Source of the DNA: Thermodesulfobium acidiphilum
Lineage (GTDB): Bacteria; Thermodesulfobiota; Thermodesulfobiia; Thermodesulfobiales; Thermodesulfobiaceae
Direction: 5' to 3'
NCBI RefSeq assembly: GCF_003057965.1
Contig: NZ_CP020921.1
Span: forward strand, 456,100 to 514,915
Length of the DNA: 58,816 bases
Of the stretch, positions 40,683 through 49,930 are shown one piece after another. The notes beneath the pieces are model-generated. The model had not been told where the DNA came from. It saw nothing but the letters and a program-made list of their open reading frames with translations, and searched no databases. The translations under genes and the position numbers were made by a program. Every line of letters starts with the position of its first letter. The first letter of the stretch is position 1.

Positions 40683-41069
40683 ATGGCTTTGAGTAAAGAA
40701 GAAATATTAGAAGCTATATCTCAAATGACTGTTCTTGAACTTTCAGAACTTATTAAGGCTTTTGAAGAAAAGTTTGGTGTTACAGCCGCGGCACCCGTTG
40801 CAGTTGCAGCCGCTGGTGCTGGGGTTGCTGCAGCACCTCAGGAAGAGGTTGAAGAACAAACAGAATTCGACGTAATTCTAACTGATGTGGGTGCAAAAAA
40901 GATTGATGTTTTGAAGGTTGTGCGTGAGATTACTTCACTTGGTTTGAAGGAGGCAAAGGATTTAGTTGACAACGTTCCAAAACCAATTAAAGAGAAGGTG
41001 AAAAAGGAAGAGGCAGCTGAAATCAAAGCAAAGATTGAAGCTGCTGGCGGTAAGGTCGAAGTAAAGTAA
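40683..41069 (+). CDS. rplL: 50S ribosomal protein L7/L12
   Basis: [28 protein letters not shown]. Confidence 0.99.
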
Positions 41070-41093
41070 TAAATATTATTTAAATAATATTCT

Positions 41094-41122
41094 GGTCGGA
41101 CTTAAGTCCGACCTTTTTTTTT
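41094..41122 (+). terminator. Rho-independent terminator after rplL
   Basis: Perfect palindrome GGTCGGACTTAAGTCCGACC plus T9. Confidence 0.9.
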
Positions 41123-41174: not shown

Positions 41175-42155
41175 ATGGAATATAGGAAGTTAGGGACTTC
41201 TAATATTATGATTTCTACAATAGGATTAGGTACCTGGGCTATAGGTGGTTGGTCCTGGGGTGGTACTGATGTAGAAAGGTCAATTGAAACAATCAAGGCT
41301 TTTATAGATAATGGAGGCAATTTTATTGATACTGCTCCTGCTTATGGTTTAGGACTGTCTGAAGAGATTGTTGGAGAGGCAATAAAGGGTAAGAGAGACA
41401 AAGTTGTTTTAGCTACAAAGTGTGGTTTAGTTTGGGATACAGAAAAAGGCACGTTTTTTTTTCAGGAGAACGATAAGCCTGTTTATAGATATCTAGGTAA
41501 AGAATCCATAGAAAACGAATTAAACCAAAGCCTTAGAAGATTAAATACTGATTATATAGATCTTTACCAGATCCACTGGCTTGATAGAATTACTCCTGCT
41601 GAAGAGGTAATGGGGACTCTTTTAAAGGCTAAAGAAGAGGGGAAGATTAGAGAAATTGGAATATGTAATGCTGGAACTTTAGAAATTGAAGAGTTTATGA
41701 AGTATGCAAAAATTCAATCTGATCAAGAGAAATTTAGTATGCTGGATATGGAAGCAAGGTTTGAAAATATACCCTATTGTGTAAAGAATAATATTTCTTT
41801 TATAGCCTACTCTCCTCTTGAAAAGGGTTTATTGAGCGGTAAAGTAACTCTTGATAGGGTATTTCCCAAAGACGACAACAGATCTTTCGAATCAAGATTT
41901 AGCCCTCAAATTAGGGGAAAAATTTTGAATATTTTGGCTGAGTTCAATAGGCTAAAAGAGAAGTATAATATTACAACAGCACAACTTATTCTGGCCTGGA
42001 CTAGAATGATGCCAGGAGTTTCATGTTTGCTTGTAGGAGCAAGAAGGGCAGAACAGGTTATAGAAAATCTTAAATCGTCTGATATTTTTCTTGAGCAGAG
42101 CGATTGGAACTATATTTTTGATTATGTTGAAAGAAAGGCTGAGAGCATATTTTGA
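41175..42155 (+). CDS. Aldo/keto reductase
   Basis: GLGTWAIGG, DTAPAYG, LATKCG, DLYQIHW, AYSPL..GLLSGK. Confidence 0.93.
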   Translation: MEYRKLGTSNIMISTIGLGTWAIGGWSWGGTDVERSIETIKAFIDNGGNFIDTAPAYGLGLSEEIVGEAIKGKRDKVVLATKCGLVWDTEKGTFFFQENDKPVYRYLGKESIENELNQSLRRLNTDYIDLYQIHWLDRITPAEEVMGTLLKAKEEGKIREIGICNAGTLEIEEFMKYAKIQSDQEKFSMLDMEARFENIPYCVKNNISFIAYSPLEKGLLSGKVTLDRVFPKDDNRSFESRFSPQIRGKILNILAEFNRLKEKYNITTAQLILAWTRMMPGVSCLLVGARRAEQVIENLKSSDIFLEQSDWNYIFDYVERKAESIF

Positions 42156-42201: not shown

Positions 42202-42774
42202 TTGGAAAAGATTGATATTATTAAGAAAAATTTAAAAAAAGTCGTTGAAGAAAAAATTCAAAAAATGCCAATTTATTCCTGGATTGATAGTTTTTATGAT
42301 ATATTTATTTCATGGGAAGAATTTTTCGAAATTTTAAAAAAATACGATGACAAAGCATTGTTTAGTATAAGTGAATTTAGCGGTGAAGAGCTTAAGAATA
42401 TAGAAGAAGAGGTTGTAAAAATATCAATAGAGGGTTTAAAATGTAGAATTAGGAAAGAGATTGAGAAGGAACTTCAATCGGTTGAAAGGTTCTGGATTAT
42501 AGTAGATAAAGAAGGTCTTAAATTGCCAAGATTTATTGTTTATGATGATGGTGAGAAAAAGAAGAAGGACTTTAATGTTTTTGATTGTTTGAGGGCATAT
42601 GGCTTAAAACCTGATGGGAACGAAGTTTGGGAAGATGTTGCAAAATCAATTTTGTACTCAAGAGAAAATAGGGAAGAATGGGATCTGGATCTTTATGCTA
42701 CTTATCTTGAAGCTGAAGATCAGGGGTTAAACGAAGTTCAAAGTTGTTCTACAAAATATATGGATATAGTTTAA
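42202..42774 (+). CDS. Hypothetical protein (charged, 190 aa)
   Basis: Open frame filling the intergenic space, GAGGA SD before TTG; no recognised motif. Confidence 0.65.
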   Translation: MEKIDIIKKNLKKVVEEKIQKMPIYSWIDSFYDIFISWEEFFEILKKYDDKALFSISEFSGEELKNIEEEVVKISIEGLKCRIRKEIEKELQSVERFWIIVDKEGLKLPRFIVYDDGEKKKKDFNVFDCLRAYGLKPDGNEVWEDVAKSILYSRENREEWDLDLYATYLEAEDQGLNEVQSCSTKYMDIV

Positions 42775-42819
42775 GTTTTTTGTATATAATTTTTATATAA
42801 CTTAAACTTAGGGGGTAAT

Positions 42820-45042
42820 ATGAAGATTTTTCGTACTTTCTTAAATGCTGCCCTTCGTAAAAAAATGGGCATAATGGTTCTTTTGAGCTTTTTTGTCTTC
42901 GGATTGTTATTGTCTGGTGGTGGATTAATTCAAATTTATAACTTTAGTAATGAAATTCTGTCAAATGATATAGCAAACGCGTCTAAAGGTCTTAATTTAT
43001 TTCTTGATTCAAAGATTACGGACTCAAAGAGAATTGCTTTGATCCTTTCTACTGAACGCGACCTTGTTAATGATATAAAAAATAAAGATTTTGCTTCTCT
43101 ATCTTCATTTATTGAAAAAATTTCTCAGCTTTACCCTGGATCATATGTGACAGTTACTGATTCTGATGGCAGAGTTATAGCGAGAAGTAATGCGCCTGCT
43201 GAAAGAGGTGATAATTTATCTGATTTACCAGAAATTGCAAGCGCTTTAAGTGGTAAAGTTGAATCTGGCATTGCGAAGGGACATACTACTGGACTATCAG
43301 TAAGAAGTGGAGCACCAATTAGAGACGAAAAAGGAAAAATTATTGGAGCCATTTCAACAGGTTTTAAAATTGCTGGAATTAAAGATATTCCAGTTCAAAT
43401 TAAAGATACTCTTGGAGTAGAAGTAGCTTTTTTTGATGGGGAGAAAATGGTTTCCACGTCTATTAAAAATGAGGAGCTTCCATACTTTGATAAATTTTTT
43501 AAATCTTCTATTTATGATCCAGTACTAAAGGATGGCAAAACAGTTGATTATGGTAATCCTAGAAATATTTCAGAAATGTATAACTTTATAAAAGAAATAC
43601 TATTTGGCAAGCCTTATTTTGCATATTATTATCCTCTTGAAGATGTAAATGGAAAAATTCTTGGAATGTATTTTATTGCAAAAGATACTTCTTTTTATAA
43701 TAACATGTTAAAAAGATTTACTATAATGCAGTTTGCTTTGAACATTTTAGCTATTGTTATCGGTATAATTTTGTTATTGTTATCTATGGAATTTTTCTTT
43801 ATGAGGCCAATAGGACTGTTGGTAAAAGATATTAAAAGGGTAGCTTCTGGTGATCTTAGCCAACCTCTTAATCCTGTTTACAACGATGAGTTAGGAGTTG
43901 TTGTAAGGGCTGTAGAGTCTATAAGATCAAACTTTATTAACGTTATTGGAAAAATTAATTATGCTATTAAAGATCTAGCAAATGCTTCTAACAATCTTTT
44001 GTCGGTGTCGTCTTCTCTTACAACGTCTTCAAGCGATGTATCTAAATTATCTGAAATAAATGCTAAAGGAGCAGAGAATTTATCTACTATTGCATCCAAA
44101 TTAAATGAAGATAAGGACATTTTGCTAAAGAGTATCCAGGGTATATCTAAAGGTGTCGAAGATCAAGCAATTGCTGCTTCTAGCATTGCTCAAAACATCA
44201 ATAGAATAGCAAGGAGCATTGAAGATTTTACGAATAAGCTTGAGGACGTAAGTAGCAACTTGTTGGCAGTAGATACGAAATTTAAAGAAATGGAAAAGAG
44301 TATTTTAGAAAAAAGAAGTGTCGTTGGAGCAGCAATAGATATGGCTAGTAACATAAATACAATTTCTGATGGAATAAAAGAGATCTCTGAGAAAATGAGA
44401 ATGTCTTTAATTCCGATTCAAACCATTGCGAATCAAATTCAGCTCTGGTCATCAAACGTTATAATTGAAACCTCAAAATTAGGTGAACAGGGGAAAGCCT
44501 TTGGTGTTATTATAGATGAGATACGTAATCTTTCCGAAAAGCTTTTGTACACAACCAATGAAATTTCTAGCAATCTTAACGAACGCTTGTTTAACTCTGA
44601 TAATTTTGATCTTAATTTTGAAAAATATATTGAAGGCATAAAAGATCTGAGGAACTACTTTTCTGAAATAGAAGACTTTGTTAAAACTTTGAAGGATAAC
44701 ATCAGTAATTTGTACCAAAAATTTGAGAAAATAAAAGGCGAAGCTTTGGGTATAATATCTTCAAAAGACATTAAAAACATTGAGACAAGTTTGGCCAATC
44801 TTGCTGCTTTAGCTGAAGAAGATCTTTCAAACGTGCACGAACTAAACAGAGCATCTATAGGCGTTCAAAAGGCAATCGAAAATCTTGTAGGGATTTCAAA
44901 AGATACTGTTTCATCAACAAAGGACATTTCAGAAAGAGCTGATAAACAATTAAATGAAGCAGGTAAATTGGAAGAAGTTTCGAGTAATATTAAGATAAAG
45001 TCAAATGAACTTGAAGATGAGGTAAGAAAGTTTAAAATATAG
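42820..45042 (+). CDS. Methyl-accepting chemotaxis-like membrane receptor (TM-Cache-like-TM-HAMP-coiled coil) with degenerate signalling tip
   Basis: Two TMs, APIRD..G.IIG and G.ILG Cache-like motifs, HAMP (P...GDLS...DELG), IANQ..L...N..IE...GE.GK.F.V..DEIR.L.E. Confidence 0.82.
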   Translation: MKIFRTFLNAALRKKMGIMVLLSFFVFGLLLSGGGLIQIYNFSNEILSNDIANASKGLNLFLDSKITDSKRIALILSTERDLVNDIKNKDFASLSSFIEKISQLYPGSYVTVTDSDGRVIARSNAPAERGDNLSDLPEIASALSGKVESGIAKGHTTGLSVRSGAPIRDEKGKIIGAISTGFKIAGIKDIPVQIKDTLGVEVAFFDGEKMVSTSIKNEELPYFDKFFKSSIYDPVLKDGKTVDYGNPRNISEMYNFIKEILFGKPYFAYYYPLEDVNGKILGMYFIAKDTSFYNNMLKRFTIMQFALNILAIVIGIILLLLSMEFFFMRPIGLLVKDIKRVASGDLSQPLNPVYNDELGVVVRAVESIRSNFINVIGKINYAIKDLANASNNLLSVSSSLTTSSSDVSKLSEINAKGAENLSTIASKLNEDKDILLKSIQGISKGVEDQAIAASSIAQNINRIARSIEDFTNKLEDVSSNLLAVDTKFKEMEKSILEKRSVVGAAIDMASNINTISDGIKEISEKMRMSLIPIQTIANQIQLWSSNVIIETSKLGEQGKAFGVIIDEIRNLSEKLLYTTNEISSNLNERLFNSDNFDLNFEKYIEGIKDLRNYFSEIEDFVKTLKDNISNLYQKFEKIKGEALGIISSKDIKNIETSLANLAALAEEDLSNVHELNRASIGVQKAIENLVGISKDTVSSTKDISERADKQLNEAGKLEEVSSNIKIKSNELEDEVRKFKI

Positions 45043-45065
45043 AAAATGGTCTAAGGAGACTTATA

Positions 45066-46382
45066 GTGCTAAAAGTAAATCTTAAGACTCATAGGAAAAG
45101 GTTGTTGGCCGATACCAGTGGCCAAAAACTATTTGTTTTGCTTAGCATTGAGGTTGCTAAAGAAGTTGAGGAGAGAGGAAAGCTTTTTGTCTCCTTTGTT
45201 CTTGACACATCTGGTTCAATGAACGAAACAGTAAATGATAAGTCAAAAATTGAAATTGTTGTTGAATCCCTGAAAAAAATTCTTGAGTCTAACATTTTAA
45301 AAGATGATGATGAGATAAGTATTATAACGTTCGATGATGAAGCAAAAATTGTTCTGCCATTTACCGCTGCGACGAAGAGTGAAAAAATATTTTCATCATT
45401 TGAGCAAATTAAGACTGGCACAGTTGGTACAAATTTGGGTGCTGGGATGAAAGTTTCTTTAGATTTACTTAAGGATAAAGCCGGGATAAAAAAGATGGTT
45501 GTTTTAACAGATGGTAACGTTTTTGATCCAGATCAGGTTGAAAAAGTTCTTGATGAACTTGTTTTTTCTAATATATCTGTGATATCGGTTGGTGTTGGTG
45601 ACGAGTGGAATGAGGATTTATTATGCAGGATTTCTGATCGAACTTTAGGTAAACCTCTGCACCTAAGTGATGTTGAAAACGATTCTGAAAGTTCAAGCAA
45701 TATTAACGTTAGTAAATTGCCTTATGTCTTTTTAAACGAATTAGGTCATGCGACACAGGAAGTGGTTATGAATATTGAAATGGAAATTGAATTAAAAGAT
45801 GGCTTTTCTCTTGAAAGGATAACAAAAATCTTTCCCGTTCAATATGAGATTATGATAGAGAATGCACCTTACTTATTGGGGAATCTCGAATCAAGGAGAA
45901 GAAATGTTTATCTTCTAGAATTTAATATTCCTTCGATGCCTGTCTCAAAGGTTGAAATGGGAAAAATTGAGCTATATTACCAGGTTCCAAATGCTGATAC
46001 TAGAGAAAAAATAGGACCTTTTGAAATTGGAATTGAATTTACGAAGGACCAACTGTTGGCAGTTCAAACAGATCAAGAAGTAATGGATTGGGTTCAACAA
46101 AGAAACATTGAGAAAATAGTAAGTGAGGCAATTAGTCAGGCACATAAATCGCCCGAAGAAGCAGAAAAAATTTTGGGTTTGGCAAGAAGTCTAACTATAA
46201 AATTAAAAAATGAAGACTTAACGGCTTTGTTAGATAAAGCAATAGAAGAAATTAGGGTTAAGAAATATATAGGCTCAAACGTGGCTAAAACGCTTAAAAT
46301 AGGCACAAAAACACAACTATTAGATCACTCTAGAGAGGATATGCCTACAGATGATGATATTAGAAAAGCAACAGGAAGATAG
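45066..46382 (+). CDS. von Willebrand factor A domain protein (GTG start)
   Basis: MIDAS elements VLDTSGSM, GTN, LTDG; GVGDEWNEDLL; beta-rich middle and helical C-terminus. Confidence 0.88.
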   Translation: MLKVNLKTHRKRLLADTSGQKLFVLLSIEVAKEVEERGKLFVSFVLDTSGSMNETVNDKSKIEIVVESLKKILESNILKDDDEISIITFDDEAKIVLPFTAATKSEKIFSSFEQIKTGTVGTNLGAGMKVSLDLLKDKAGIKKMVVLTDGNVFDPDQVEKVLDELVFSNISVISVGVGDEWNEDLLCRISDRTLGKPLHLSDVENDSESSSNINVSKLPYVFLNELGHATQEVVMNIEMEIELKDGFSLERITKIFPVQYEIMIENAPYLLGNLESRRRNVYLLEFNIPSMPVSKVEMGKIELYYQVPNADTREKIGPFEIGIEFTKDQLLAVQTDQEVMDWVQQRNIEKIVSEAISQAHKSPEEAEKILGLARSLTIKLKNEDLTALLDKAIEEIRVKKYIGSNVAKTLKIGTKTQLLDHSREDMPTDDDIRKATGR

Positions 46383-46408
46383 GTTGGTCGTAAATATGGA
46401 GAAATCTT

Positions 46409-47851
46409 ATGGATGATGAAGCTGTTGAGAGTTTAGATTTTGAAAAATCGTTTAATTCTTTTAAAGTTGTTGAATCCTTTGAAAATGGATGGAATAAATG
46501 TGAATATAATGGCAAAACGTTTTTGTGCTATAACGGGGAAAGGGTTAATGTCTATGAAAAGATATTAAAGATAAAGATTTTTCCAGAAATATTAAGTCTT
46601 TTCGGTAATAATATTGTTTGTAAGTTTTATCAAGATAAAAGAATAAATCTCCCATTAGCACCAGATTTGTCGCTACTTCTTATAAAAGACATATGTGAAG
46701 CATCTATTCTTTTAAAAAATCAAGGATATATGTTTAAGAATATTAATGTTAATGACATAGTGAAATCAGAAAATGGCTTTAAGTTCTCAAAAATTCCTAC
46801 AATTATAAGCTTTTCAGATTTTGAGTTAACAAACCAAGCTTATAAAATAGAAGATTATACGATCAAATTGCTGGGCTCCCTTCTATATGAATTATTGAGT
46901 GCAATGTCAATAAACAATGGTTTTGATGTCAAAATTATTTCTCGTTATGATATTCCTGGTATTCCACAATTCCTCTCACTTGCTCTTCCTGGAAGTAGAG
47001 CAAAATTTTCTCTTAATGATGCTTATAATATGTTAAATCAAATATGCTCTACAATCGAAGTGCGCCACTGTAAATATAATATTGGCGCGGCCTCAACAAT
47101 TGGCTTGAACGTTTCAAGATCAATCAATGAAGACTCATTTGGTTATGCCCAGATGTATTTCTATAATCATTTTGGAAAACATAACGTTTTGAAAGCCTGT
47201 ATAGCAGATGGTATGGGGGGGATGGAGGCAGGAGAGATAGCCAGTGAAGCTGCTGTAGATGCCTTTTTAACTGAAAAATTTAAACTAATTGATGATGAAG
47301 AACATATAGCCAATCAAACAATTGAACTTGCATGGAGGGCTAACAAGGCTGTTTTAGAAGGTTTAAATGGTAAAAATGGAGGTTGTACTTTTAGTGGCAT
47401 TTTCATTTATGATGACAAGCTTTTTATTGCACATGTTGGTGATACAAGAATTTATCTGTATAAGGATAAAAAGCTTGAAAGGTTAACAAACGATCACTCT
47501 TTGGTTGAAACGTTGATTTTAGGTGGAATAATGACAAGAGAAGAAGCCCTTAACAGTCCCGATAGAAATAAACTTTTAAGGTCTATGGGGGTTATAATAG
47601 ATAAACAAGAAAATTACATAGAAGGACTATATCAAAAATTGGGGAAACACTTTGTTCAATTAGTTAAAGGAGATCTTGTCTTAATAGTAAGCGATGGAGT
47701 ATGGGGTGAATTGCCGGACGATGAGCTGTTTTCTATTATAAGTTCCTTATCTAATAGGCCAGATGACCTGGTAAATGAACTAATTTCAATAGTTTTGAAA
47801 AGAGGGGCGCCTGACAATGCGACAGCAGTTGCTATTTATAAAGAATTTTAA
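46409..47851 (+). CDS. PP2C/PPM phosphatase with N-terminal degenerate kinase-like region
   Basis: NEDS, IADGMGG, AHVGDTRIY, DHS, SDG, DNAT in the C-terminal half. Confidence 0.88.
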   Translation: MDDEAVESLDFEKSFNSFKVVESFENGWNKCEYNGKTFLCYNGERVNVYEKILKIKIFPEILSLFGNNIVCKFYQDKRINLPLAPDLSLLLIKDICEASILLKNQGYMFKNINVNDIVKSENGFKFSKIPTIISFSDFELTNQAYKIEDYTIKLLGSLLYELLSAMSINNGFDVKIISRYDIPGIPQFLSLALPGSRAKFSLNDAYNMLNQICSTIEVRHCKYNIGAASTIGLNVSRSINEDSFGYAQMYFYNHFGKHNVLKACIADGMGGMEAGEIASEAAVDAFLTEKFKLIDDEEHIANQTIELAWRANKAVLEGLNGKNGGCTFSGIFIYDDKLFIAHVGDTRIYLYKDKKLERLTNDHSLVETLILGGIMTREEALNSPDRNKLLRSMGVIIDKQENYIEGLYQKLGKHFVQLVKGDLVLIVSDGVWGELPDDELFSIISSLSNRPDDLVNELISIVLKRGAPDNATAVAIYKEF

Positions 47852-47869
47852 AAAATTTAAGGAGAGAGT

Positions 47870-49615
47870 ATGATTTTTTGTAAGGTTTGCGGGTATGGAC
47901 CTATATCAGAGGAAGTAAATGTTTGCCCGGTATGTGGCACGTCAATTGTTGAAAAGGCTTTTTCTGGGACCAGGACTCTTTCTATAATGTCGCTGGCTTC
48001 GGGGACTCTTCTTCAAAATGGGAAGTACAGAATTGAAGATGTAATTATTCAAGGTGGATTTTCTTTTACTTATTCAGCAGTACAAACTATGCTTGATGTA
48101 AAAGTAGCGATAAAGGAGTTATTTGCACTAGGAGCTACCAGACAGGGTAGTGTTGTTATTTTTGACTCAGATTCTTCTGAGAGTATTGGTGAATTTTTAA
48201 ACGAGGGTAGAATTCTTGCAAGGTTAAATCACCCTGGAATTGTAAAGGTTCTTGATTTCTTTGAAGAAAACAACACTGCGTATCTGGTAATGGAATTTCT
48301 TGAAGGGGAATCTTTGTCTTTGTTGTTGAATAGGGTAGGAAAAATACCCGAAAATGAAGCTCTTAATTATATTAAACAAGTAGCCCAGGCTTTAAAAGTT
48401 GTTCATGATGCGGGGTTACTTCACCAGGATGTAAAGCCAGATAATTTAGTTTTAACAAAAGAAGGTCGAATTGTAATTGTTGATTTTGGATCAGCCAGGC
48501 AATTTATAGCAGAGAAAACAGGCAATTATGATAGAATTGTTACTCCTGGCTTTGCACCTCTTGAACAATACGGTCAGAGAGTGAGAAGGGGGCCATATAC
48601 AGATGTTTATTCACTTTGCGCTAATTTTTATACGTTAATAAAAGGCTTTCCTCCACCACCTGCTCCAGATAGATTGCAAACTTTAAAAGAATTAGATTTA
48701 GCGGGTATAAGTCCTAAAATTGGTAGAATTATTTCAAAAGGTCTTGAAGTTAATGTAAACAATAGAATTAGATCGATGGATGAGCTTTTGGCGATGATTG
48801 ATGAAGTAGAAGGCAAAACTTTTGCAGTGGATAAAACTATTTCGAAAGAAATGCTGCAAAGGGAAGAGGGCATTAATTTTGATGATAGAAAACTTTCTAC
48901 AGGTAATGAAGGTATAGCTTATCAAAAAGAAATACCTGATATTGATATTTTGGAAATTGAGAGTCAAGAAGATCCTAAAGTACTTTTTGAAATTGGATTA
49001 AAATATTTATTGGGTTTTAATGTTACAAGAAATTTCGATATAGCGTTTAAATGTTTTAGAGAGGCTTCAGAAAAGGGAAATGCTGATGCAATGTACCACC
49101 TTGGACTTATGTATCTTCACGGACAAGGTACTTATCAGGATGATAAAATGGCCTTCAAATACTTCAAAGAGGCTTCAGAAAAGGGAAATGCTGATGCAAT
49201 GTATAGACTGGGCTGGATGTATGAGTATGGTAGAGGTACTTATCAGGATGATAAAATGGCCTTCAAATACTTCAAAGAGGCTTCAGAAAAGGGAAATGCT
49301 GATGCAATGTACCACCTTGGACTTATGTATCTTCACGGACAAGGTACTTATCAGGATGATAAAATGGCCTTCAAATACTTCAAAGAGGCTTCAGAAAAGG
49401 GAAATGCTGATGCAATGTATAGACTGGGCTGGATGTATGAGTATGGTAGAGGTACATCACAGGATTATAAAATGGCAAAGTATTGGTATGAGAAGTCAAA
49501 AGATTTAGGAAATATTGATTCGAAAAACAAACTTGAAAGCTTTTTACCTGAAATTAGTTCTAAAAAAAATAAGGGTAACTTTATTGGGAAAATTTTCAAA
49601 AATATTTTTGGTTGA
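47870..49615 (+). CDS. Zinc ribbon + Hanks-type Ser/Thr kinase + Sel1-like repeats
   Basis: CKVCG..CPVCG; GGFS, VAIKE, HQDVKPDN, DFG, APLEQ, DVYS; five Sel1 repeats (A.Y.LG.MY..G.G). Confidence 0.92.
   Translation: MIFCKVCGYGPISEEVNVCPVCGTSIVEKAFSGTRTLSIMSLASGTLLQNGKYRIEDVIIQGGFSFTYSAVQTMLDVKVAIKELFALGATRQGSVVIFDSDSSESIGEFLNEGRILARLNHPGIVKVLDFFEENNTAYLVMEFLEGESLSLLLNRVGKIPENEALNYIKQVAQALKVVHDAGLLHQDVKPDNLVLTKEGRIVIVDFGSARQFIAEKTGNYDRIVTPGFAPLEQYGQRVRRGPYTDVYSLCANFYTLIKGFPPPPAPDRLQTLKELDLAGISPKIGRIISKGLEVNVNNRIRSMDELLAMIDEVEGKTFAVDKTISKEMLQREEGINFDDRKLSTGNEGIAYQKEIPDIDILEIESQEDPKVLFEIGLKYLLGFNVTRNFDIAFKCFREASEKGNADAMYHLGLMYLHGQGTYQDDKMAFKYFKEASEKGNADAMYRLGWMYEYGRGTYQDDKMAFKYFKEASEKGNADAMYHLGLMYLHGQGTYQDDKMAFKYFKEASEKGNADAMYRLGWMYEYGRGTSQDYKMAKYWYEKSKDLGNIDSKNKLESFLPEISSKKNKGNFIGKIFKNIFG
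49060..49455 (+). repeat. Intragenic tandem repeat, 108-nt units in A-B-A-B order, exact 216-nt period
   Basis: GAGGCTTCAGAAAAGGGAAATGCTGATGCAATGTA at 49061, 49169, 49277 and 49385; 49060-49239 is identical to 49276-49455. Confidence 0.95.
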
Positions 49616-49639: not shown

Positions 49640-49667
49640 TTGACATTTTAAATTTAAGGTTTATTAT
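49640..49667 (+). promoter_or_regulatory. sigma70-type promoter for the ilv-leu leader
   Basis: TTGACA-16 nt-TATTAT. Confidence 0.6.
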
Positions 49668-49702
49668 ATATAGAATTAACGTTTTGAAAATTTAATAGAG
49701 TT

Positions 49703-49930
49703 AAAGGCTACGAACAGGAGTAGTAGAAAGCTTAACTTTTTAAGAGAGCCGAAGGTTGGTGCGATTCGGTAAAGGGCGCTTTCGAACTCGCCTGGGAGCT
49801 TTTCTGGTGAATTTAAGTAATCAGGAACGTAAGACTGCGTTAAAGTTCAGAGTGAACCATCCTTAGGATGGTTAATCGTGGTGGTACCGCGGAACTTCCC
49901 TCCGTCCTCGTGATGTGAGGGTTTTTTTTT
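49703..49930 (+). ncRNA. T-box riboswitch, Leu (CUC) specifier, with terminator
   Basis: AGTAG, AGAGAG and GGTGCGA stem I motifs; GAA-CTC specifier 49787-49789; T-box AATCGTGGTGGTACCGCG; CCTCG/TGAGG stem plus T9; upstream of ilvB. Confidence 0.92.

Follow-up and report, generated by a model that had tools for sequence, protein, structure and literature searches.

What is the role of a degenerate chemoreceptor gene that leads a run of genes for Ser/Thr phosphorylation? This question is raised by four genes at positions 42820 to 49615 of a 58,816-nucleotide stretch of the Thermodesulfobium acidiphilum genome (NCBI RefSeq assembly GCF_003057965.1, contig NZ_CP020921.1, positions 456,100 to 514,915 of the forward strand; hereafter the window), which encode a chemoreceptor-derived membrane protein, a von Willebrand factor A (vWA) protein, a PP2C phosphatase with a kinase-like N-terminus and a Ser/Thr kinase. 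A preliminary description had proposed a signalling or defence system, either a receptor rewired to a Ser/Thr phosphoswitch or a variant of the TerY-P systems. Our analysis identifies the last three genes (the triad) as a pared-down form of a module already known, if little studied, from Deinococcus radiodurans and the first, by its place in a tree, as a diverged duplicate of a canonical chemoreceptor. The whole statement, namely a resident switch lacking a forkhead-associated (FHA) protein, with the duplicated receptor as its membrane input, is one that we regard as quite possible, though short of probable. Throughout, G000 is the genome of the window and G000-G003 are the four genomes of the genus (94-100% complete). 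The four genes are as follows, in window coordinates.

42820..45042, + strand: chemoreceptor-derived membrane protein, 740 residues (open reading frame (ORF), Pfam, hydropathy, tree)
45066..46382, + strand: ArnB-type vWA protein, 438 residues (ORF; orthologue of DRA0331)
46409-47851, + strand: pseudokinase-PP2C phosphatase, 480 residues (ORF; orthologue of DRA0334)
47870..49615, + strand: soluble Ser/Thr kinase, 581 residues (orthologue of DRA0332 over ribbon and kinase)

The earlier account of the ORFs, their common strand and the gaps between them (23, 26 and 18 nt) holds exactly. Pfam finds dCache_3, HAMP and a weak MCPsignal match (40.7 bits) in the first, VWA in the second, PP2C in the third, and Pkinase with five Sel1 stretches in the fourth.

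The triad and its family

The triad proteins are almost certainly orthologues of DRA0331 (vWA), DRA0334 (PP2C) and DRA0332 (kinase), by blastp alignments of 37% over residues 1-437 (324 bits), 31% over residues 15-478, N-terminal domain included, and 46% over residues 4-267 (Zn ribbon and kinase), the genes of the D. radiodurans plasmid record being equated with DRA0331-0334 by order and length. In the available text of a bioRxiv preprint (10.64898/2026.01.23.701218), DRA0331, DRA0332, the FHA protein DRA0333 and DRA0334 are encoded in one operon, DRA0334 has Mn-dependent activity on several kinases including DRA0332, and DRA0332 phosphorylates the FHA protein. The long vWA protein, the PP2C with an N-terminal domain and the Hanks-type kinase with an N-terminal Zn ribbon are all present in the window; the FHA protein is absent. 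Because PF00498 (FHA) has no match in any of the four genus genomes, the triad is, to judge by its sequence, a reduced variant without FHA and not a full member. The orthology supports the reading of vWA, PP2C and kinase as a signalling switch.

The D. radiodurans operon further differs in gene order (vWA-kinase-FHA-PP2C, against vWA-PP2C-kinase here) and in its kinase, which has three transmembrane (TM) helices where ours ends in Sel1 repeats and an amphipathic tail; it has an FHA gene where we find none in operon or genome, and the receptor lies upstream only here. The window order is that of the modules on Gloeothece and Nostoc plasmids and in the phyla of genomes G024 and G380 (vWA, Zn-ribbon-FHA, pseudokinase-PP2C, Zn-ribbon-kinase), minus the FHA gene, at identities of 32-37% (vWA), 32-41% (PP2C) and 34-47% (kinase). 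Those modules have no chemoreceptor, and the G024-phylum and cyanobacterial kinases end in TPR, or in a TM helix with a weak cytochrome-c-like match, where the window kinase has Sel1. The long vWA protein and the pseudokinase-PP2C, which had been held to set this locus apart, are indeed there but are standard for the family. The Sel1 ending is also real but is dropped as a mark of novelty, the combination of kinase and Sel1 being common among the matches; as kinase C-termini vary across the family (TM, TPR), Sel1 is one more C-terminal solenoid.

The DRA0331-0334-type module is patchy but widespread: it is carried by 12 of 38 genomes of the G024 phylum, 8 of 151 of the G380 phylum and 10 of 401 of a broad sample (genus included), and it occurs on Deinococcus and cyanobacterial plasmid records. 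In 12 of 22 plasmid records, the match spans 80% or more of the vWA protein, some of the plasmids being conjugative; the Deinococcus evidence consists of two plasmid-collection records, each covered in full. A related vWA protein is found in 18 of 151 genomes of the G107 phylum, and the loci read there mostly have a plain PP2C. Scanning 46 loci outside the genus with our own profiles (some with only ~2 kb upstream), we found vWA with pseudokinase-PP2C in 29, an FHA gene in 27 of these 29, and vWA-FHA-PP2C-kinase as the usual gene order. A contig scan with the single vWA protein gave nine loci, mostly distant, and a metagenome scan with the PP2C alignment gave mostly ordinary PP2C genes, with the pseudokinase-PP2C in 3 of 80 loci (L085, L086, L125) and a sole methyl-accepting chemotaxis protein (MCP; L163) ~4 kb from an ordinary PP2C-kinase pair. 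As a separate observation, three G024-phylum kinases (L073:10532-12259, L074, L079) have one TM helix and a C-terminal weak match to cytochrome c (PF13442, E ~2e-5, under the cut-off), so that periplasmic redox input to a Ser/Thr kinase is possible there. In G044 (L079:12580-16342), the module follows a series of Zn-ribbon, LemA and SHOCT-TM2 genes.

AlphaFold2 models the vWA protein (pLDDT 89) as a split beta-sandwich, a vWA domain and a C-terminal helical bundle. Its MIDAS (the adhesion site that depends on a metal ion) is intact (D47, S49, S51, T122, D149) and invariant in 22/22 family members, and the bundle threonines T377, T386, T409 and T416 are kept in 15-16 of the 22. Foldseek relates the model to the tripartite Catenulispora vWA protein 4FX5 (TMq 0.79), ArnB 8S05 (0.68) and vWA2 5A8J (0.62), and the best PDB sequence match is again Sulfolobus ArnB 8S05 (E 6e-28); by its model, the protein has the ArnB fold. 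In the accessible parts of the Sulfolobus studies (PMC6509490, PMC12852372), ArnC phosphorylates ArnB on threonines of the bundle, the ZnF-FHA protein ArnA is the reader of this mark and PP2A removes it, the output of ArnAB being repression of archaellum expression. With that system (kinases ArnC and ArnD, PP2A) the window protein shares the tripartite vWA fold, the MIDAS and the Thr-bearing C-terminal bundle; it differs in its ~20% identity to ArnB, in the lack of an ArnA counterpart in the genome and in the presence of a PP2C in place of PP2A. Through its ArnB-fold vWA protein, the little-studied Deinococcus and cyanobacterial module appears to be a bacterial equivalent of archaeal ArnA/ArnB, whatever the fate of the receptor link. 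Within residues 369-418 (46170-46320), positions 369, 401, 406 and 418 are Thr in 11-14 of the 22 members and not in the window protein, which may go with the loss of the FHA reader.

The phosphatase has two domains.

46433..47062, + strand: pseudokinase domain, residues 9-218 of the phosphatase (HHalign, fold comparison)
47066..47851, + strand: PP2C/PPM phosphatase domain, residues 220-480 (metal ligands D242, D267, D429, D469)

The kinase-like N-terminus of the preliminary description proved real. HHalign scored it at 99.6% to kinases and at 0.1% to a five-sequence FHA profile, and comparison by VIA aligned ~200 residues to YabT, Nek7 and PknB (Z 13.0-13.8), the best fold match being the YabT kinase (Z 13.8, 205 residues aligned, rmsd 4.6). 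The region has the whole Hanks kinase fold without the VAIK lysine, the catalytic-loop Asp and DFG, and for this reason is a true pseudokinase. With the whole phosphatase, Foldseek against PDB had PP2C matches only among those listed, the kinase fold surfacing in the separate comparisons. The metal ligands of the PP2C domain (Z 30.5 to PstP) are invariant in 71/71 aligned homologues. The pseudokinase aligns to the region of DRA0334 (residues 210-368) that the preprint names 'KI-FHA' (10.64898/2026.01.23.701218). A pseudokinase as the docking domain of the phosphatase means that the 'KI-FHA' experiments on DRA0334 are to be read differently, again independently of the receptor link. Our own FHA profile misses the D. 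radiodurans PP2C (L166:11123-12973, equated with DRA0334), and a PP2C plus kinase protein of D. radiodurans already stands in the accessible table of a 2005 survey (PMC1262709).

In each of the four genus genomes, the window kinase is the sole PF00069 (Pkinase) match. It comprises an N-terminal CxxC-CxxC Zn ribbon (residues 4-22), a kinase domain with intact catalytic motifs (K82, E112, D187, DFG at 205), a variable linker and a Sel1 solenoid (residues ~371-548), has no TM helix by hydropathy, and ends in a distinctive tail.

49571..49612, + strand: C-terminal basic amphipathic helix of the kinase (kept in 3/3 complete orthologues examined)

The hydrophobic moment of this tail (0.73-0.74) is in the top 1% of windows within the protein, and we take the tail to resemble the MinD membrane-targeting sequence; a looser version of the filter is passed by 82 of 1190 ORF ends. 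It is a candidate membrane tether. Over positions 49080-49508, an alternative-frame ORF of 142 residues covers near-identical Sel1 repeats and most probably arose as a side effect of recent duplication of the repeats, the repeat pairs being almost letter-identical.

The triad is under strong purifying selection, with a ratio of non-synonymous to synonymous substitution rates (dN/dS) of 0.05-0.10. The housekeeping surroundings noted earlier are borne out: the block lies between ribosomal-protein genes (rplL side) and ilv genes, at the same site in 4/4 genus genomes, and the GC content at third codon positions (GC3) of the four genes is 0.24-0.26 vs 0.262 +/- 0.043 for the genome. The locus looks resident and does not resemble a defence island.

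The receptor and its tip

The first protein consists of TM1 (residues 14-40), a dCache_3 sensor (63-292), TM2, HAMP (328-368) and a cytoplasmic hairpin, as read from Pfam and hydropathy. It thus has the TM-sensor-TM-HAMP-MCPsignal order of an MCP, and lacks the near-invariant tip and the consensus methylation sites. Its MCPsignal match scores 40 bits, whereas the four canonical TM receptors reach 143-148, in a genome with seven MCPsignal ORFs, this one included. The earlier remark that there are no che genes holds within the window but not beyond it, where the genome has CheW, CheA and neighbouring ORFs that read from their sequence as CheB/CheR/CheC/CheD-like. The closest paralogue is the canonical receptor G000:C1:40479-42665 (37% identity). 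In a tree obtained by a quick search, the two are sister clades with support 100, on stems of 1.33 for the window receptor and 0.23 for its sister. Since it is the sister of the C1:40479 receptor, it appears to have arisen by duplication of a canonical chemoreceptor, followed by divergence.

Few signalling surfaces in prokaryotes are as conserved as the hairpin tip of chemoreceptors, which works through CheW and CheA. Here it has been replaced.

44434..44544, + strand: re-fixed hairpin tip, residues 539-575 (14/37 residues match the canonical tip)

The canonical tip is complete (37/37) in 16 of 17 canonical sequences, and 13-17 of its 37 residues are left in 6/6 orthologues of the window receptor, 20-24 positions differing, with changes that include Leu to Trp and Asn to Gln. 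Among themselves the six are invariant at 23 of the 37 positions, of which 12 are non-canonical (e.g. Q541, W543, K553, L554) and 11 canonical. Identity between species is 82-92% over residues 531-580, against 35-67% and 43-82% in the flanking bundle and 95-96% in TM2-HAMP; with an overall receptor dN/dS of 0.10-0.17, the tip is among the best conserved cytoplasmic stretches. Strict methylation motifs (the consensus pattern of the literature) number 2-4 in 13/13 canonical full-length receptors vs 0 in 6/6 orthologues, a Glu-Glu pair at 666-667 being kept in a changed context. The frame of 740-741 residues is intact in all six full-length orthologues, and length and C-terminus are kept. The receptor is therefore degenerate, as had been described, in its tip, its weak MCPsignal match and its want of strict methylation motifs; it is also a maintained protein with a new tip, has probably lost adaptation, and probably no longer serves the chemotaxis array. 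A re-fixed tip under selection, with the methylation motifs gone, amounts to a natural experiment in receptor rewiring.

The altered tip is restricted to the genus (five clusters at 65-100%, then ordinary receptors), an Atlas search with the receptor gave ordinary MCP clusters only, and a receptor with such a re-fixed tip is undescribed as far as our search of the open-access literature reaches. As an aside, identity over the Cache region (42955-43719) is 66% to G001 (L016) but 87% to G003, the more distant of the two. All other regions show the opposite order, and this suggests sensor-domain replacement or gene conversion in G001.

The receptor as proposed input to the switch

We propose, tentatively and with somewhat less than even confidence, that a duplicated chemoreceptor was freed from CheA/CheW and CheR/CheB and that its tip re-evolved to dock a Hanks-type kinase module, bringing a periplasmic dCache input to the only Ser/Thr kinase of the cell. 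The receptor is the most likely membrane input of the switch; that it feeds the kinase is suggested, weakly, by adjacency only. The proposal starts from what was observed, i.e. family identity, folds, catalytic residues, divergence of the tip under selection and loss of the methylation motifs, and from these we infer co-transcription, contacts and substrates. The triad would be built like archaeal ArnA/ArnB, with its Zn-ribbon-FHA reader lost, and the receptor would have left the Che pathway with sensor, TM helices and HAMP kept, consensus methylation sites lost and a new tip fixed. By analogy with ArnB and DRA0332/0334, the kinase would autophosphorylate and phosphorylate threonines of the vWA C-terminal bundle, on which the pseudokinase-PP2C would dock to reset them; these threonines would be the switch, whose output could not run via an FHA protein. 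Ligand binding to the dCache domain would act through HAMP and the re-fixed tip to shift the kinase/phosphatase balance, the tip acting via the Sel1 solenoid, the vWA MIDAS or the pseudokinase.

In 4/4 genus genomes, the receptor lies directly 5' of the vWA gene with a gap of 23-25 nt. Each of the three intergenic gaps in the window is mostly ribosome-binding site, and a terminator scan confirmed that none of them contains a terminator-like site. A new tip that is conserved calls for a partner, and the genes that follow offer three surfaces for docking (Sel1, MIDAS, pseudokinase). A TM-less kinase, set against TM-bearing relatives (three TM helices in both Deinococcus kinases, one in 11 of 12 G024-phylum kinases), also fits membrane input from the receptor. 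The kinase PknG has a rubredoxin-kinase-TPR build and is likewise TM-less. A precedent in function, for which no homology is claimed, is actinobacterial GlnH-GlnX-PknG, in which a chemoreceptor-like membrane transducer with chemoreceptor-type sensor folds controls this Ser/Thr kinase (PMC9769921). In the accessible text of that study, the periplasmic domains of GlnX are four-helix bundles and it lacks an MCP signalling hairpin, whereas the window receptor has the hairpin, and the output is the FHA protein OdhI, whereas FHA is absent here. A search of the open-access literature found no case in which an MCP signalling domain is coupled to Ser/Thr phosphorylation. If the proposal is true, the output of such a domain would here go to Ser/Thr phosphorylation and not to a histidine kinase, and its target would be an ArnB-like vWA switch that lacks an FHA reader. 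In a small genome with one Hanks kinase and candidate partners adjoining, the partner of the receptor should be easy to find.

Several results weigh against this proposal. No chemoreceptor stands beside the module in any of the 46 loci outside the genus (some with only ~2 kb upstream), so that the conservation of the neighbourhood, which the preliminary description had wished to see examined, holds within the genus (4/4) and fails elsewhere. The objection that it had itself foreseen, of a triad already characterised and a receptor not linked to it in other genomes, applies by half: the system that the triad matches has been characterised in part, and the pairing is confined as just described. 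An independent repeat of the pairing is lacking, as the altered tip has no relatives outside three close clusters: among 1.8 billion representatives, three matched at E<1e-30 and the signature was in 0 of the next 147. The flanking reductase, orphan gene and ilvB are equally syntenic in the genus, and its genomes are kin. Short gaps between co-directional genes are the norm in this genome (747 of 1266 neighbours, or 59%, lie within 30 nt in a crude ORF set), hence the spacing of the four genes is weak evidence by itself, being little more than chance. FHA is absent or decayed in two G024-phylum loci without a receptor: L078 has no FHA gene, with another copy in its genome, and has two tandem vWA paralogues, and L080:7350-7604 is a broken Zn-ribbon-FHA remnant between vWA and PP2C, in a genome with zero FHA matches. 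Soluble, TM-less kinases ending in TPR also occur in the family without a receptor, a TPR C-terminus being seen in three kinases checked from other loci. As both losses occur elsewhere in receptor-less loci, neither the loss of FHA nor that of the TM helix needs a receptor. The receptor itself keeps the canonical tip residues N546, E550, G555 and F561 and, with a dN/dS of 0.13-0.17 vs 0.03-0.05, evolves 3-5 times faster than the sister receptor. A complex prediction with two copies of receptor residues 480-640 and the kinase Sel1 region (residues 362-560) scored 0.00, with the controls not folded, and counts neither for nor against the link.

It is a serious, if still somewhat doubtful, possibility that receptor and triad are neighbours only. 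The triad would then be an ordinary FHA-less switch of the DRA0331-0334 type with cytoplasmic input via Sel1 and the Zn ribbon, and the receptor, off the Che pathway, would have another partner (e.g. the product of the upstream orphan gene) and share a transcript by position. The synteny of the whole block, the frequency of short gaps, the receptor-less state of 46/46 other loci, the FHA-less copies elsewhere and the orphan gene, which also adjoins the receptor in 4/4 genomes, all speak for it. Against such an account, the conserved new tip is in need of a partner and the adjoining genes encode the Sel1, MIDAS and pseudokinase docking surfaces; it meets a further difficulty in the four canonical TM receptors of G000, which stand farther from their neighbours (no less than ~39 nt from the next ORF and >130 nt upstream). 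Should the link fail, the locus comes down to a known module in reduced form next to an unusual receptor confined to the genus.

We consider it unlikely that the receptor still works in the chemotaxis machinery in an atypical manner, as a non-adapting receptor, an array spacer or a damper, with the triad unrelated or modulating motility separately. The genome does have Che genes and six other MCPsignal ORFs, the length and C-terminus of the receptor are kept, and 11 tip positions are canonical in all orthologues. Moreover, in the accessible text of work on Tsr, R388K shows wild-type adaptation, and mutants at E385/R388 remain able to form trimers and core complexes (PMC6681711); by analogy, the Arg-to-Lys change at 553 may be tolerated and some array function retained. 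A paper search found nothing on the role of Tsr L378. The tip, however, is the nearly invariant region that holds the trimer contacts and the CheA/CheW binding determinants (PMC4692393), and 20-24 of its 37 positions differ here, in a receptor with zero strict methylation motifs.

An anti-phage or conflict system of the TerY-P type is very improbable, and neither the defence reading nor the TerY-P-like variant of the preliminary description survived. YegL, PphC and YegI of E. coli, which we take to be a TerY-P-type triad, likewise co-encode a vWA protein, a PP2C and a Ser/Thr kinase, but have no blastp match to the three triad proteins at E<=10; YegL has 219 residues and PphC 253 without a pseudokinase, while here the vWA protein has 438 and the PP2C is fused to a pseudokinase. 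By the definition in the accessible text (PMC11090510), TerY-P combines a TerY-like vWA with a PP2C and a kinase that bears a Zn ribbon or OB fold at its C-terminus. In the window the PP2C is co-encoded, but there is neither a short stand-alone vWA protein nor a C-terminal ribbon, the ribbon being N-terminal (residues 4-22) and the C-terminus Sel1. We therefore rejected TerY-P identity on three grounds: no similarity to the Yeg proteins, a ribbon at the opposite end and a 438-residue vWA protein of the ArnB fold. The same three domain types, the presence of the family on plasmids, some of them conjugative, and kinase matches to PADLOC models such as PD-T4-6 and mad6 would suit a defence role, but these matches cover the kinase domain, with one weak match for the PP2C and none for the vWA protein, and the genomic GC3, the fixed site among ribosomal-protein and ilv genes in 4/4 genomes and the low dN/dS of the triad all argue against it.

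That the receptor is a decaying duplicate is scarcely credible, for despite its long tree stem and faster evolution than the sister clade, the frame is intact in all six full-length orthologues, dN/dS is far below 1, and TM2-HAMP and tip are 95-96% and 82-92% identical, respectively, between species.

Boundaries and neighbouring genes

The surroundings of the block contain the following features.

41094..41113, + strand: terminator-like hairpin 3' of rplL (nearest clear upstream boundary)
41175-42155: aldo-keto reductase (between the rplL hairpin and the receptor, before the orphan gene)
42202..42774, + strand: orphan gene of 190 residues, 45 nt 5' of the receptor (present in 4/4 genus genomes)
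49640..49912, + strand: downstream boundary, of the ilv/leu genes (promoter-like site 49640-49667, T-box leader 49701-49912)

The promoter-like site at 49640-49667 is the best of the region and belongs to the ilv/leu genes, outside the module; the promoter scan as a whole gave 41 sites vs 34.9 +/- 5.2 in shuffles. A separate promoter for the receptor (site 42761-42790) is not claimed, the site not being kept in G003. The orphan protein has zero matches in Pfam, NCBIfam and PADLOC and nothing usable in Atlas. Its gene adjoins that of the receptor in all four genomes, with a dN/dS of 0.15-0.20, and may be co-transcribed with it; the protein is a candidate partner of the receptor. Upstream of these genes (40683-41113), rplL is followed by the terminator-like hairpin and the aldo-keto reductase and not by rpoB, and in G002 and G003 one further gene is inserted at this place.

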